A DNA stretch of 61,188 nt from an uncultured Gemmatimonadales bacterium (GTDB taxonomy: Bacteria > Gemmatimonadota > Gemmatimonadetes > JACCXV01 > JAHWKZ01): the NCBI GenBank assembly GCA_964619975.1, contig CAZUIY010000061.1:1-61188 (forward strand), written 5' to 3'. The position numbers and the translations under genes are program-made. The notes under the pieces are model-generated. The model had not been told where the DNA came from. It saw only the letters and a program-made list of their open reading frames with translations, and did no database searches. Below are positions 3,674-58,154 of this stretch, piece by piece. The stretch's first letter is position 1. The number at the start of each line of letters is the position of its first letter.

Positions 3674-4280
3674 TGGACTTTTCACTGGTAAAAAAGTTGT
3701 TCTCATAGGTCCAGCCCCACACATTACTGAAAAATTTCAAGACTTTTCTGATTACGACCTTGTGTGTCGTATCAACCTACAGGTTCATATGCCTGATGTT
3801 TTAAAAAAATACACAGGCGACAGGATTGACGTGTGGTTCCCTACCGACAAAATGATCCGGGACAACCATTCATGGGCAGAGTATGATCACGTTAAAATTG
3901 TCAGGGTAGGTGAGAGCCGAAAAAGATACTTCACCAAAGACACAAGACACAAGTTTTCCCGCATGAATGGGTTTCTAAGCCAAGTCCGTCGAGAAATAAA
4001 ATGTGAGCCAAACAGGGGTATGAAAGCAATAATAGATATATGTATGGACCGGCCATCGGAGCTATACATTACTGGATTTACATTCTATCAAAAAGATGTT
4101 GCGTACTACGATAATTACTGTCCTGCCTCCGGGCAACAAAGAATCTCGAAATCAAAAGGAGATGTGGCCAACCACAGGCAACGGCCTCAAATCAAATATT
4201 TCATTGAGAATATACTTCCGTTAAAGTTTGTGAGAATCGATCAGGAGCTTCGGGATGTCGTTGATCAATTTGATTCGTGA
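3663..4280 (+). CDS. GT29 (sialyltransferase-like) glycosyltransferase
   Basis: L-motif-like KKVVLIGPA..DYDLVCRIN..YTGDRIDV, S-motif-like PNRGMKAIIDI..ELYITGFTFY, and VS-like H....QIKY. Likely start is the ATG at 3663, overlapping the upstream stop. Confidence 0.65.
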   Translation: MKSNGLFTGKKVVLIGPAPHITEKFQDFSDYDLVCRINLQVHMPDVLKKYTGDRIDVWFPTDKMIRDNHSWAEYDHVKIVRVGESRKRYFTKDTRHKFSRMNGFLSQVRREIKCEPNRGMKAIIDICMDRPSELYITGFTFYQKDVAYYDNYCPASGQQRISKSKGDVANHRQRPQIKYFIENILPLKFVRIDQELRDVVDQFDS

Positions 4281-28346: not shown

Positions 28347-30034
28347 TATGTTGTAATTGTTATTTTAGCGTTTATGATGGAATTGGAAGTGTCTGTCATA
28401 AAATCTGCAAGCCATGACCCTGTTATCAGGGTTCCGTCCGCATGCCTGAAACAAATATATGCGGTGTCGGACGTTACATCTTTGTCTATGACCTCAGCTT
28501 CAATTGGTAAATTCCTGTTTGTTGGAGCAACAAGACCCCGATTCCCCATTAAATCTGCCGTAATAAAATAGTCCTCCGAATCTCCTGAAAAGAAATTTGT
28601 CACCGCAAACTGTATAGGGGCGTTTAACCATTCGTTTAGATCAGCAACTCCTGTCACAGCTATAAAGGTATCCGGTGCGGACTGAGTAACCTCCTGTAAC
28701 ACCGTTCCGGTAAGGGATTGATACCTGATTGAGATTGCAGGTAATGCTGTTCCTGTTATTCCGAACTGAAGTTCTACATCCAATCGATTTCCTACAGTCC
28801 CCGCAGCAGCCGACAAATAGAAAGTTGTCACCCCGTTTACGGTGTCTGAGGTTATTGTAATTGAATCATCGGGTGAGTCAATATCGAAAGTCAAAGCGTT
28901 TATCAACTCCAATACTGCGGGGGCAAGACCTACCTGATACGTGTTTGAGCCATCAAAGCTGACTGTGGTCTCTCCCGCTGTTCCGATTACTATGGTATGA
29001 TCTCCGCTCATTCCCAACCCCTGGATGATTGTAGGACCATCTTCACCACAACAATCACAATCATCCGTTGATCCGGCTAATATCAAAATCACATCTCGAT
29101 ACTCTCCTACAAGACTTGTCTTCCCACAGACGAAAGCGTTTCGCATCAACTGTGCAATCGCAGAAGCCGCAAGAAACGGAGTTAAAGCATTGTTCGCTTC
29201 CTTAGCATTCGAACATTTTACAGCAATGTACCGATCATACAATTTTTTCAACGCACAAAATACAGTACAAACATCCTGCGGGTTATCAATATCTTCTTTC
29301 TTCTTCAGGTAGATTTCTGTGACAACATACAGGGCATCATTCGCGCTGGTTTGCGTTGTTGGTGACGTTCCCGATACATTTGTGTGTGGAACCGCTGCCG
29401 GATAAGTGTACAACAATTCATTACTGAGTTCAAACACGTATTCCAAACCGCCTACTTGTCCACCAAACACAGACGTTTGAACAACTGGCCCTGTACTCGT
29501 TGTAACCGCCGGAACAGGATCAAGAGCATTCGAAGGAATGATTTTGTTCTCCCTATCCATGGTAGGAGTAACTCCACCGACTACATAATTTGTAGCATCT
29601 ACCGACTTCAAAAGTGGTATGAAATAATCGATTGTTACTGTCAGAGCCGGAGTCGGGGTTACAAAATCAAGATCAACTTCATAATCCACTACGTCAATCG
29701 CCTCCACAACTTCTCCCGACACGTCTACCCAATACCGCGAACGTCTCAACTGGTAGGTTCCCTGAACAACCGCACTCGCAGAATCCAACAAAAGGTTCAT
29801 CGCAAACTCAGGGTCTGAGTCAGGATACATGTCAAGTTCTGTGGTACTGGTGTTGTTGTGAGTGGTGATTCCTGCCGGAGAAATGAGCCTGTAATTAACT
29901 CCTATTTGCGTGGCTCCTGCCGGTGGAGTGAGGCCGCTGTAATCGTTGGTATCCTCGGTTTGCAGTTCTTTTTCAATAAAGTCTGCGATAATCTTTAAGC
30001 CAGTCATGCTTCGTCGGTTTGCCCAAAAGTACAA
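28346..30034 (-). CDS. Structural protein (fibre-attachment/hub-like)
   Basis: Beta-rich, with a central Cys cluster (VCTVFC..KC..CG..CDCC); the real start is probably the ATG at 30007. Confidence 0.6.
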   Translation of the reverse strand: MYFWANRRSMTGLKIIADFIEKELQTEDTNDYSGLTPPAGATQIGVNYRLISPAGITTHNNTSTTELDMYPDSDPEFAMNLLLDSASAVVQGTYQLRRSRYWVDVSGEVVEAIDVVDYEVDLDFVTPTPALTVTIDYFIPLLKSVDATNYVVGGVTPTMDRENKIIPSNALDPVPAVTTSTGPVVQTSVFGGQVGGLEYVFELSNELLYTYPAAVPHTNVSGTSPTTQTSANDALYVVTEIYLKKKEDIDNPQDVCTVFCALKKLYDRYIAVKCSNAKEANNALTPFLAASAIAQLMRNAFVCGKTSLVGEYRDVILILAGSTDDCDCCGEDGPTIIQGLGMSGDHTIVIGTAGETTVSFDGSNTYQVGLAPAVLELINALTFDIDSPDDSITITSDTVNGVTTFYLSAAAGTVGNRLDVELQFGITGTALPAISIRYQSLTGTVLQEVTQSAPDTFIAVTGVADLNEWLNAPIQFAVTNFFSGDSEDYFITADLMGNRGLVAPTNRNLPIEAEVIDKDVTSDTAYICFRHADGTLITGSWLADFMTDTSNSIINAKITITT

Positions 30035-30070
30035 ATTTCCGAACGAAGTTGTTAAAAAATGTTAATTCCG

Positions 30071-38046: not shown

Positions 38047-38087
38047 CAAATGTAATCAAAATCAGCCGAACTGTTAAAAAGTGTTAA
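38047..38087 (-). promoter_or_regulatory. Portal-operon promoter with an inverted tandem TGTTAA box
   Basis: TACATTTG on the - strand at 38047-38054; TGTTAA-AAAG-TGTTAA on the + strand at 38072-38087. Confidence 0.65.
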
Positions 38088-38092
38088 AAAGC

Positions 38093-38156: not shown

Positions 38157-38528
38157 CTACGCATTGTAACTCAATCCGTCACGTGCCTTCCGAAAGACTG
38201 ACAAATTGGGTGATTTGATAATGGCATCATTTAAGTAGGGTCTATTCTCATTTCCGGCAGTCTTACCGCATTTATCAGAAAATGTCACCTCCGGGTTTTC
38301 CGAAATAAAATAAATATGGTCATAGCCTTGCTCCTGTTTACCATCACTACGCTTGACCTCTGCGGTCGCCACGTAATCATTGGTTGTAAGCAAAACATCC
38401 ATTTCAACATCCTGACCGATGTCGATATCAACTACCACTTCTTTTTCGACACTGCCTGTGGTTAGGGCAATGGCTGGGAGGGAAAACATCAGTAATCCGA
38501 CCAGCATTAGATTGAACAATCGTTTCAT
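38157..38528 (-). CDS. Secreted hypothetical protein
   Basis: MKRLFNLMLVGLLMFSLPAIA signal peptide; monocistronic, with a TGTTAA-N4-TGTTAA box at 38563-38578. Confidence 0.7.
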   Translation of the reverse strand: MKRLFNLMLVGLLMFSLPAIALTTGSVEKEVVVDIDIGQDVEMDVLLTTNDYVATAEVKRSDGKQEQGYDHIYFISENPEVTFSDKCGKTAGNENRPYLNDAIIKSPNLSVFRKARDGLSYNA

Positions 38529-38710
38529 GGGTCCTAAATTAATAACAATTTTGGAAAAAGGTTGTTAAACCCTGTTAAAAACAGACACCCCAACCGAGTA
38601 AACGGCTGAGGTGTCTGCTAACCAATCCTCCATTATGAAAAAAATACAGGAGCAATTTAAGCAAATCTGTGGATTCTACAAATCCGGACGCGAAAAATGT
38701 AAGAAACACA

Positions 38711-38740
38711 AAGCCCCAACCGAATGAACGATTGGGGCTT
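38711..38740 (-). terminator. Terminator closing the ncRNA cluster
   Basis: AAGCCCCAA/TTGGGGCTT 9-bp stem followed by a T-rich tail on the - strand. Confidence 0.7.
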
Positions 38741-38752
38741 CTCTGTCGTAGC

Positions 38753-38903: not shown

Positions 38904-39069
38904 TGGACAGAGTAGGAGTTGAACCTACACCCTACTTTTTACAAGTCGATTAAGCTCGTCAACTTCAATAAGCCAGACAATCAACCTAACTTACATTCAT
39001 TGATTCAGGACGGATCACAGAGGACAAAATGTCTTGTTTCCGCGCGTCTACCAATTCCGCCATCTATCC
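38904..39069 (-). ncRNA. 166-nt tRNA-Leu-like RNA with an expanded anticodon/variable region
   Basis: Acceptor GGATAGA/TCTGTCC+A; Leu-type D arm GCGG-AATTGGTAGA-CGC; T arm GTAGG-TTCAACT-CCTAC; 114 nt between the D and T arms instead of about 30. Confidence 0.8.
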
Positions 39070-39205: not shown

Positions 39206-39251
39206 CAAATATAATCCGGTACGACAAAACCACCAAGTTAAAAACTGTTAA
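39206..39251 (-). promoter_or_regulatory. Promoter of the ncRNA cluster with an inverted tandem box
   Basis: TATATTTG on the - strand at 39206-39213, TTTG upstream; AGTTAA-AAAC-TGTTAA on the + strand at 39236-39251. Confidence 0.65.
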
Positions 39252-39252
39252 C

Positions 39253-39301
39253 AAAAAAAAGACCTCCCAATTTGAGCATTGTGAAGAGGCTTGGGAGGTT
39301 C
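39253..39301 (-). terminator. Intrinsic terminator ending the replication/middle operon
   Basis: ACCTCCCAA/TTGGGAGGT stem plus T8 on the - strand. Confidence 0.75.
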
Positions 39302-57673: not shown

Positions 57674-57880
57674 ATGAAACACCTTTTACAATTCTTACTT
57701 CTGGCAGGGATAATCTTTGCCGCAACTTTTGGAATCAACTACCTTTTCATCCAGGCAGACCCAACAATGAACTTTGATGGTGTCCGGGAACCCGTGGCAT
57801 ACGGATCTATGATGTTCGCCATTCTAATCTCTGGCGCGATATTGCTCTACCAACCACCGAAAATAAAATTCACCCGATAA
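57674..57880 (+). CDS. Early two-TM membrane protein
   Basis: Two hydrophobic segments. Confidence 0.6.
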   Translation: MKHLLQFLLLAGIIFAATFGINYLFIQADPTMNFDGVREPVAYGSMMFAILISGAILLYQPPKIKFTR

Positions 57881-57890
57881 AATCAAGAAA

Positions 57891-58154
57891 ATGGCACACA
57901 CAATCAATACCAAAGATATTGCAGAATGTATTGAAGTTCTGACCACAATTAAACCTGAAGAAACCATAACTCCGGATCGCTACGAACTCCGTTTAGGACG
58001 AAAAGACCCTTTAGAAATGGGTTATGATAAAAGCCGGAGATTAGCACCCGAAGAACAGTTAAGCCGTAGCGCTCACATTAGAATGCTGCAAGAGGTTTGC
58101 GAAATGATGAAATTAGGAGACCAATTTATAGAATGGTGTCAAGCAAACAGATAA
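57891..58154 (+). CDS. Early hypothetical protein
   Basis: Co-directional ORF. Confidence 0.6.
   Translation: MAHTINTKDIAECIEVLTTIKPEETITPDRYELRLGRKDPLEMGYDKSRRLAPEEQLSRSAHIRMLQEVCEMMKLGDQFIEWCQANR

Follow-up and report, generated by a model that had tools for sequence, protein, structure and literature searches.

An anticodon-less tRNA-Leu-like RNA in a Bacteroidota phage belongs to a class of phage RNAs with different inserts

Introduction

Several natural RNAs combine a tRNA-like module with a second, unrelated domain. In tmRNA (SsrA), an acceptor/T-arm module without an anticodon carries a large structured domain in its place; the chassis is one whose synthetase, AlaRS, ignores the anticodon and reads the G3-U70 pair, and the RNA is matured by tRNA-processing enzymes. 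The bacterial Y RNA YrlA joins a module that mimics the acceptor, D and T arms of tRNA to a second functional module (PMC4201824); its 5' and 3' ends form the Ro-binding stem, the tRNA-like part is internal, and the gene lies next to rsr. Phage T4 encodes RNA C (species 1 RNA, rnaC) and RNA D, small stable RNAs of unknown role, within its tRNA cluster (PMC3014915). In phages of Bacteroidota, the Lak megaphages carry oversized tRNA genes with 'enigmatic' introns that standard tRNA finders miss (10.1101/356790). Laboratory variants of tRNA-Leu that lack the anticodon and variable arms are still charged by LeuRS (Larkin et al. 2002; PMC9976931), and engineered tRNA scaffolds (Ponchon and Dardel) serve as processing and stability cassettes in E. 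coli.

Here we analyze a 166-nt tRNA-Leu-like RNA encoded in a phage genome. An earlier note, made from the sequence alone, had proposed that this RNA retains the acceptor stem, D arm and T arm of a leucine tRNA, with a 114-nt multi-hairpin domain in place of the anticodon and variable arms, and that it might act as a decoy for anticodon nucleases or tRNA-sensing defences, or as a scaffold. We find that what the note described is present in the sequence, whereas its interpretation is upheld only in part.

Results

A tRNA-Leu chassis closed around a 115-nt insert

The window, by which we mean the whole 61,188-nt stretch of DNA analyzed (contig CAZUIY010000061.1), contains the element on the - strand, together with the following features:

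38904..39069 (-), whole tRNA-Leu-like RNA gene, 166 nt from G1 to the discriminator A73
39063..39069 (-), 5' strand of the acceptor stem, GGATAGA, preceded by U(-1)
39044..39062 (-), U8 and G9 plus the Leu-type D arm (39060-39044) GCGG-AATTGGTAGA-CGC, with A14, A15, G18G19 and A20a
38929..39043 (-), 115-nt insert in place of the anticodon and variable arms, ending in U48
38912..38928 (-), T arm GTAGG-TTCAACT-CCTAC
38904..38911 (-), 3' strand of the acceptor stem, TCTGTCC (38911-38905), plus the discriminator A73 (38904), followed by C74 and then AT
39206..39236 (-), candidate Bacteroidota-type promoter TTGG-N19-TATATTTG, about 137 nt upstream of G1
38710..38741 (-), intrinsic-terminator-like hairpin (13 bp) with a U-rich tail, about 160 nt downstream of A73
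39262..39298 (-), neighbouring abiF RNA motif (RF03085) followed by a T run

The acceptor stem pairs at 7/7 positions with one U-G pair, and the T stem pairs at 5/5. The core tertiary positions U8, A14, A15-U48, G18G19 and U54-A58 are present along with A73. The sequence reads CAU before G1 and CAU after A73, so CCA is not encoded. The stretch between the D and T arms is 115 nt long rather than the 114 nt given in the note. The hairpins named there all exist: CGGA/TCCG with the inner ACA/TGT and GACA/TGTC at 39042-39011, AATCAA/TTGATT at 39005-38979, and AAGTTGA/TCGACTT at 38965-38943. For the middle part of the insert (about 39005-38959), however, the constrained minimum-energy fold prefers a different pairing, GUAAGUUAGG/UCUGGCUUAU at 39003-38959, and no homologues were at hand to tell the two apart. 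ORFs overlapping the region match no PHROG family, and no coding signal overlaps the element.

To test if such an arrangement could arise by chance, we scanned the window for a generic tRNA shell, requiring a T arm, a 7-bp closing stem and a D arm with GG within an overall length of 60-260 nt. Exactly one site was found, compared with 0.03 per dinucleotide shuffle (3 of 100 shuffles had any hit), and that site also carries the exact Leu-type D arm. Chance is thus excluded. The fold constrained to the tRNA shell (-46.3 kcal/mol) lies within 0.7 kcal/mol of the unconstrained minimum (-47.0 kcal/mol). The insert alone is not unusually stable (z = -0.9).

The element is not a canonical tRNA, a tmRNA or a spliceable tRNA

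ARAGORN and an Rfam search had been named in advance as checks on the element. ARAGORN, run with and without intron mode, finds no tRNA or tmRNA in the whole window. Rfam 15 assigns the element to no tRNA, tmRNA, group I intron, ribozyme or other family; when the element is searched on its own, only the T arm matches the tRNA model, at 13.7 bits against a gathering score of 29. At the position of the anticodon arm the sequence is CGGAA-ACAAGAC with no complementary 3' strand, so that a 5-bp stem and a 7-nt loop carrying U33 and a Leu anticodon are lacking. These results support the note's view that the RNA is a tRNA-Leu mimic that cannot decode, and that it is neither a group I intron nor a tmRNA. 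There is no group I intron hit at the gathering score or at E values up to 10, and the insert of 115 nt is well below the roughly 200 nt of the smallest natural group I introns. Pair 3-70 is A3-U70 instead of G3-U70, and a D stem is present.

We next asked if the insert could be removed by an unknown mechanism, as in the Lak megaphage tRNAs, to give a working tRNA-Leu. Every single excision was tested exhaustively for a 5-bp anticodon stem, a 7-nt loop with U33 and a purine at position 37, and a variable-arm hairpin. No solution was found for the element in the window, and only 1 of the 44 insert families described below yields a cloverleaf; relaxed rules gave hit numbers no higher than in shuffled inserts. 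The same method does recover two real tRNA-Leu(UAA) genes from other phages, retrieved by the same scans, that carry 62-nt and 43-nt inserts in the anticodon loop (loci L104/L051 and L037, respectively). Although these genes and the Lak introns lend the idea some support, we consider an intron-containing tRNA-Leu very unlikely.

Genomic setting

The window is a phage genome. Its portal protein matches phrog_6547, and its distant cultured relatives are podoviruses of about 60 kb that infect Flavobacterium, Cellulophaga, Tenacibaculum and Maribacter, so the host is in Bacteroidota. The element lies in an 820-nt non-coding stretch between the replication module (initiator, primase/polymerase and RuvC-like resolvase) and the portal and structural genes. 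Reading along the - strand, this stretch contains the abiF motif and T run, the candidate promoter, a leader of about 130 nt, the element, a 160-nt trailer and the terminator-like hairpin, which was detected in a terminator scan. The abiF motif (54.5 bits against a gathering score of 37) closes the upstream unit and has not been shown to belong to the tRNA-like RNA; among 18 loci of the class scanned, none has an abiF motif. The candidate promoter is the only - strand match to TT[TG]G-N18-21-TAnnTTTG in the window, but the count for the whole window is not significant (4 against 1.7 expected), and the match is only suggestive.

The phage encodes no other tRNA, and relatives identified by their portal protein (L001-L004 and MW202828) lack the element in the sequence examined. 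It therefore looks like an accessory gene. We found no homologue of this particular insert by blastn against INPHARED, by pattern scans of IMG/VR, in two scans of JGI metagenomes, in two scans of GTDB genomes with the 5' and 3' shell, by exact-protein look-ups of the two flanking ORFs, or in the portal relatives. The structure and conservation of the insert within its own family were consequently not assessed. The longest complementarity between the element and the rest of the window is 13 nt, which lies within the range of shuffles, giving no indication of an antisense target there.

The lack of homologues and the unremarkable stability of the fold raise the question whether the element is a decayed tRNA pseudogene or a DNA-level feature such as an integration-site remnant, as tRNA-Leu genes are common integration sites. 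Against this, the chassis is intact in every stem and every core position, both tRNA halves are present and pair with each other, unlike an attP fragment, and no integrase is encoded nearby. The class as a whole also shows compensatory changes and invariant tertiary positions (see below). We regard this explanation as the least likely of those considered.

The same chassis recurs in phages with different inserts

To determine if the element is unique, we scanned IMG/VR for the Leu D arm and a T loop spaced 95-125 nt apart (64-156 nt for the TTCAACT loop). The scans returned more than 130 loci and about 70 distinct elements with this chassis; the counts given here and for the control scan below are minimum numbers. 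Of 70 unique hits that do not overlap an ARAGORN tRNA, 64 have at least 6/7 acceptor pairs in the correct register, and 59 have 7/7. The other 36 unique hits are two adjacent normal tRNAs, and their would-be acceptor strands pair at random levels. The closed elements are 108-173 nt long, with inserts of about 57-122 nt, and share the 7-bp acceptor stem, U8 G9, the D arm GCG-GAAUUGGUAGA-CGC, U48 and a 5-bp T stem with a UUCRANU loop. The element in the window has each of these features. The closed elements fall into 44 insert families with no detectable similarity to each other and use 29 different acceptor stems. The element is thus not unique to this phage but belongs to a large class, carried by dozens of unrelated phages, which could not have been seen from the window alone.

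Members often lie in phage tRNA arrays, including those of jumbo phages, on the same strand as the tRNAs and sometimes several per array with the same chassis and different inserts (loci L062, L085 and L087). They also occur in temperate gut phages, among early replication and recombination genes. An unannotated member is present in the cultured Bacteroides phage BI-TP1 (PQ571265, about 57835-57998). The 5' chassis also matches Phocaeicola phage PV4-TP1 and LoVEphage, whose full elements were not inspected.

We clustered the ORFs within 3 kb of all elements to look for a partner protein. No cluster is present in more than 6 of 44 families, and the recurrent neighbours are ordinary early genes: repressor, helicase, replication initiator, NinG, Sak4 and exonuclease. 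Comparison of the inserts across families showed only weak k-mer enrichments, such as AGGTTG and AATGTAA, and no common architecture.

Core positions are conserved and flanking sequences resemble those of real tRNAs

Several positions that were not constrained by our search patterns are conserved across the class. U8 is present in 44/44 families, G9 in 43/44, G10-C11-G12 in 44/44, U48 in 44/44 and A73 in 35/44; these positions were not measured in real tRNAs. The flanks were compared with those of real tRNAs in the same loci. U(-1), the base before G1, is found in 30/44 families and in 313/472 real tRNAs, and C74, the base after the discriminator, in 37/44 families and 389/466 real tRNAs. The loci contain 32% T overall, so the excess of U(-1) is real in both groups. 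A full CCA is encoded in 2/44 families and in 161/466 real tRNAs. The element in the window has U(-1), A73 and C74. The Leu D loop and the T loop, in contrast, were fixed in the search patterns, and their conservation is not independent evidence.

The absence of conserved structure in the insertion among homologues had been put forward as an outcome that would count against a functional RNA. In the best-sampled sister family (alignment A1, 10 sequences), the opposite is observed. All 330 cells of a 33-pair structure are standard pairs, and five pairs show changes on both sides, three in the acceptor stem and two in insert helices (U-A/A-U/G-C and A-U/G-C). No shuffle reaches the observed covariation score, and no register shift comes close. 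Such conservation within the insert has been shown for family A1 only. Rfam's tRNA model scores several sister elements above its gathering threshold, but aligns only the chassis, with the anticodon stem marked as broken.

The chassis is of the leucine type

To test if any tRNA chassis would be recovered in this way, we repeated the scan with the commonest class I D arm (GCTCAGTTGGTAGAGC) at the same spacing. Of 118 unique hits, 116 are tandem tRNAs and one is a closed oversize element, compared with 64 of 106 for the Leu D arm. According to a review of tRNA identity, E. coli LeuRS depends on A73, the A15-U48 Levitt pair, G18G19, A20a and the D/T-loop tertiary pairs, and still charges tRNA-Leu lacking the anticodon and variable arms (PMC9976931). 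The chassis keeps exactly that set and replaces exactly the dispensable parts, and the note's argument from LeuRS recognition is therefore sound. This makes leucylation plausible, although we judge it at best about as likely as not. A73 is replaced in 9 of 44 families, including within family A1, which by the E. coli rules would abolish leucylation, so charging cannot be essential across the whole class. It is also possible that a class II core simply tolerates bulky inserts better, and only one class I control was run.

Discussion

Based on these observations, we suggest, with about even confidence, that the locus encodes a non-decoding tRNA-Leu mimic, matured like a tRNA and probably charged, whose insert is the effector. 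In this view, the RNA would be transcribed as its own unit, from the candidate promoter at 39236-39206 to the terminator at 38741-38710. RNase P would cut after U(-1), the 3' trailer would be removed after A73/C74, and CCA would be completed as for the real tRNAs of the phage and host. The chassis would fold into the L-shaped tRNA core, with the insert projecting where the anticodon and variable arms would be. The RNA may then be leucylated but could not read a codon. The insert would provide the specific activity, acting in trans on a host or phage partner not identified here, while the chassis would supply processing, stability and access to tRNA-binding proteins. The chassis, its departure from a decodable or spliceable tRNA and its recurrence with conserved core positions are what the sequence analysis establishes. 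The transcription unit is inferred, maturation at both ends rests indirectly on flank signatures shared with real tRNAs, and the L-shaped core is deduced from the invariant positions; charging is likewise an inference, as no data on expression, processing or leucylation were examined, and the effector step has no direct support.

An alternative is that the chassis serves purely as a processing and stability cassette for the insert, which would be a small regulatory or protein-binding RNA, and that aminoacylation plays no role. The tRNA-like flanks, the conservation of inserts within families but not between them, the loss of A73 in 9/44 families and the precedent of engineered scaffolds are consistent with this possibility. 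However, any tRNA type would serve as a scaffold, yet the chassis is overwhelmingly of the Leu type, and the complete LeuRS identity set is kept, including U48 in 44/44 families. We consider the scaffold-only explanation unlikely, though less so than the other alternatives.

The note's proposal of a decoy would have the mimic soak up a host nuclease, nucleotidyltransferase or other enzyme that attacks tRNA-Leu or tRNA acceptor ends, without disturbing translation. Phage tRNAs counter tRNA-targeting defences (10.1101/2023.03.15.532788), the element is accessory and lies next to a phage-borne abiF RNA motif, and members sit in early or accessory regions of temperate phages. A decoy for anticodon nucleases is unlikely, because the anticodon loop recognised by PrrC/RloC-type enzymes is the part that is missing. 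A decoy for enzymes that recognise the acceptor end or the elbow remains possible, but a plain decoy would not need 44 different, internally conserved inserts, and no defence-related partner was found encoded nearby. Overall, we find the decoy reading doubtful, and any role in defence is an inference.

More speculatively, phages from many lineages may share a modular 'payload tRNA' platform, in which an anticodon-less tRNA-Leu chassis is charged by host LeuRS and carries interchangeable structured RNA domains that act on the ribosome, on tRNA-binding enzymes or on host defences. Such a platform would follow the logic of the alanine chassis of tmRNA but would have arisen independently and diversified into dozens of payloads. 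This broader reading is unlikely but possible on the present evidence.

tRNA mimics such as tmRNA, Y RNAs and viral tRNA-like structures have each revealed new biology. Here a single recognisable chassis recurs in gut Bacteroides phages, jumbo phages and this podovirus-like phage, with at least 44 unrelated inserts; it is missed by tRNA finders and left unannotated in the records we examined. Full-text literature searches found no description of this class, which is not proof that none exists. If these RNAs are charged with leucine, they would be only the second natural class of aminoacylated, anticodon-less RNAs in bacteria, and a natural version of the tRNA scaffolds used in RNA engineering. 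If they are not charged, they are still a large, uncharted set of phage small RNAs with ready-made processing signals. The occurrence in cultured phages (BI-TP1 and, for the 5' chassis, PV4-TP1) makes the question directly testable.

Comparison with known systems

The element shares with tmRNA the principle of an anticodon-less chassis whose synthetase ignores the anticodon, with a structured domain in its place. It differs in having a full D arm, A3-U70 and Leu-type rather than Ala-type identity, in lacking a tag reading frame and a pseudoknot set, and in being only 166 nt long. For YrlA, we observed no Rfam hit at the locus and no Ro-like hit among the proteins scanned, and the ends of the element form an acceptor stem in place of a Ro-binding helix. 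Not every ORF was scanned for a Ro (TROVE) gene, and a relation to Y RNAs is left undecided by these observations, although the topology appears to be the opposite one.

T4 RNA C, unexplained for fifty years, is the nearest classical analogue and may be a distant one. This 139-nt RNA has a perfect T arm, CCGGG-TTCGAAT-CCCGG, and, by eye, a 7-bp acceptor-like stem, CGGAACG/CGTTTCG, with non-tRNA sequence in between. There is no sequence similarity to the element, however; RNA C has no Leu-type D arm, carries a roughly 45-nt 5' extension outside the tRNA-like part, and has no Rfam family. The Lak megaphage genes keep an identifiable anticodon arm and isotype once the insert is removed, which is not the case for the element in the window. 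The minimal tRNA-Leu substrates are artificial constructs, with no natural counterpart reported in the papers searched; the natural element has the same architecture, with a payload added.

Possible small RNAs and regulatory sequences near the tRNA-like element

In addition to the tRNA-like element, the window contains other candidate RNA and regulatory features. On the - strand of the window we observe:

39262-39298 (- strand), a match to the Rfam abiF RNA motif, followed by a T run
About 39244-39236, TTTTTAACT, a one-mismatch variant of a repeated sequence, preceding the tRNA-like unit
38741-38710 (- strand), a strong hairpin terminator
About 38612-38580 (- strand), a second strong hairpin terminator
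38573-38581, 38072-38090 and 30050-30058 (- strand), copies of the repeated sequence TTTTTAACA

The match to the abiF RNA motif is strong (54.5 bits, gathering score 37), yet no abiF (Abi_2) gene is found nearby in this phage. The motif normally sits upstream of abortive-infection abiF genes. A phage-borne copy could be a mimic of the host RNA, or simply a terminator. To test if the motif accompanies other members of the tRNA-Leu-like class, 18 other loci were scanned, and it is absent from them. Different Rfam small RNAs do occur in phage loci that carry class members: Bacteroidetes FopS (66.7 bits) and the DUF2693-FD RNA (72-76 bits), at 1757-1828 of L070, 4674-4722 of L014 and 506-554 of L031 (L numbers denote the phage loci compared here).

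The sequence TTTTTAACA occurs 8 times, against 1.8 expected. Its four - strand copies lie just after terminator hairpins, upstream of the portal gene, of ORF 38157-38528 and of the ORF ending at 30034. A one-mismatch copy precedes the tRNA-like unit. The sequence is possibly a phage-specific late promoter or regulatory box. The two terminators within 38570-38741 are separated by about 100 nt with no convincing ORF. A weak ctRNA_pGA1 hit is found there (21 bits, below the gathering score of 45), and the region could be a second small transcript.

Arrays, payloads and members in cultured phages

Jumbo-phage and related contigs carry arrays of two to four payload elements, the chassis-plus-insert RNAs of this class, within 1-2 kb:

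L062, 5188-7219
L085, 6041-6846
L087, 1328-2133

The elements in these arrays share nearly the same acceptor and T arm (AGTCAGG...ACAGGTTCGAATCCTGTCCTGACTA) but have different inserts and even different D arms, suggesting duplication followed by payload swapping. Several inserts (L102/L127/L069, L101 and L038) contain a second T-arm-like hairpin, for example GAAGTTCAACTCTTC, AAAGGTTTGAATCCTTT and GAGAGTTCAATTCTCTC; the insert of the window has TAGGTTGATTG. T-loop modules are what RNase P, T-boxes and the ribosomal L1 stalk use to dock on tRNA elbows.

One member of sister family A1 (L139, 3001-3156, MT835900) has changes in both the D loop (AATTGGTAGA to AATTAGAAGA) and the T loop (TTCGAAT to TGCAAGT). 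These are the two partners of the elbow contact. This is either a tertiary covariation or a decaying copy.

A 164-nt class member (L138, 2499-2662; PQ571265, about 57835-57998) lies in BI-TP1, a cultured, inducible Bacteroides intestinalis phage, between a band-7 protein gene and a Holliday-junction resolvase gene. It is unannotated. Phocaeicola phage PV4-TP1 and three LoVEphage records match the 5' chassis in the same way.

Comparison with interrupted tRNAs, tmRNA and T4 species 1 RNA

Other unusual tRNA-like genes were found in the loci examined:

L104 4950-5095, L051 8714-8859 and L037 949-1073, interrupted tRNA-Leu(UAA) genes
L037 9679-9805, a tRNA-Asn-like sequence
L047 3618-3975, a permuted tmRNA call
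L137 1909-2047, phage T4 rnaC

The tRNA-Leu(UAA) genes are genuine and are interrupted in the anticodon loop by inserts of only 62 nt and 43 nt, far too short for group I introns. In L051/L104 the other Leu isoacceptors of the phage are normal, so some removal mechanism seems to be required. By visual inspection, the second L037 sequence looks like a tRNA-Asn with a roughly 55-nt insert inside the anticodon stem. In L047, ARAGORN calls a permuted tmRNA (tag GKTVNLFNAPVRQAA*) that overlaps the 5' half of a payload element at 3915-4063. It may be a false call triggered by the chassis, or a real two-piece tmRNA.

We also compared the class with T4 species 1 RNA, the product of rnaC. Rfam has no family for this RNA, and the best hit is tRNA-Sec at 17.5 bits. 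By visual inspection, its 3' 95 nt or so folds as a tRNA-like shell, with acceptor CGGAACG/CGTTTCG and T arm CCGGG-TTCGAAT-CCCGG surrounding a non-canonical middle.
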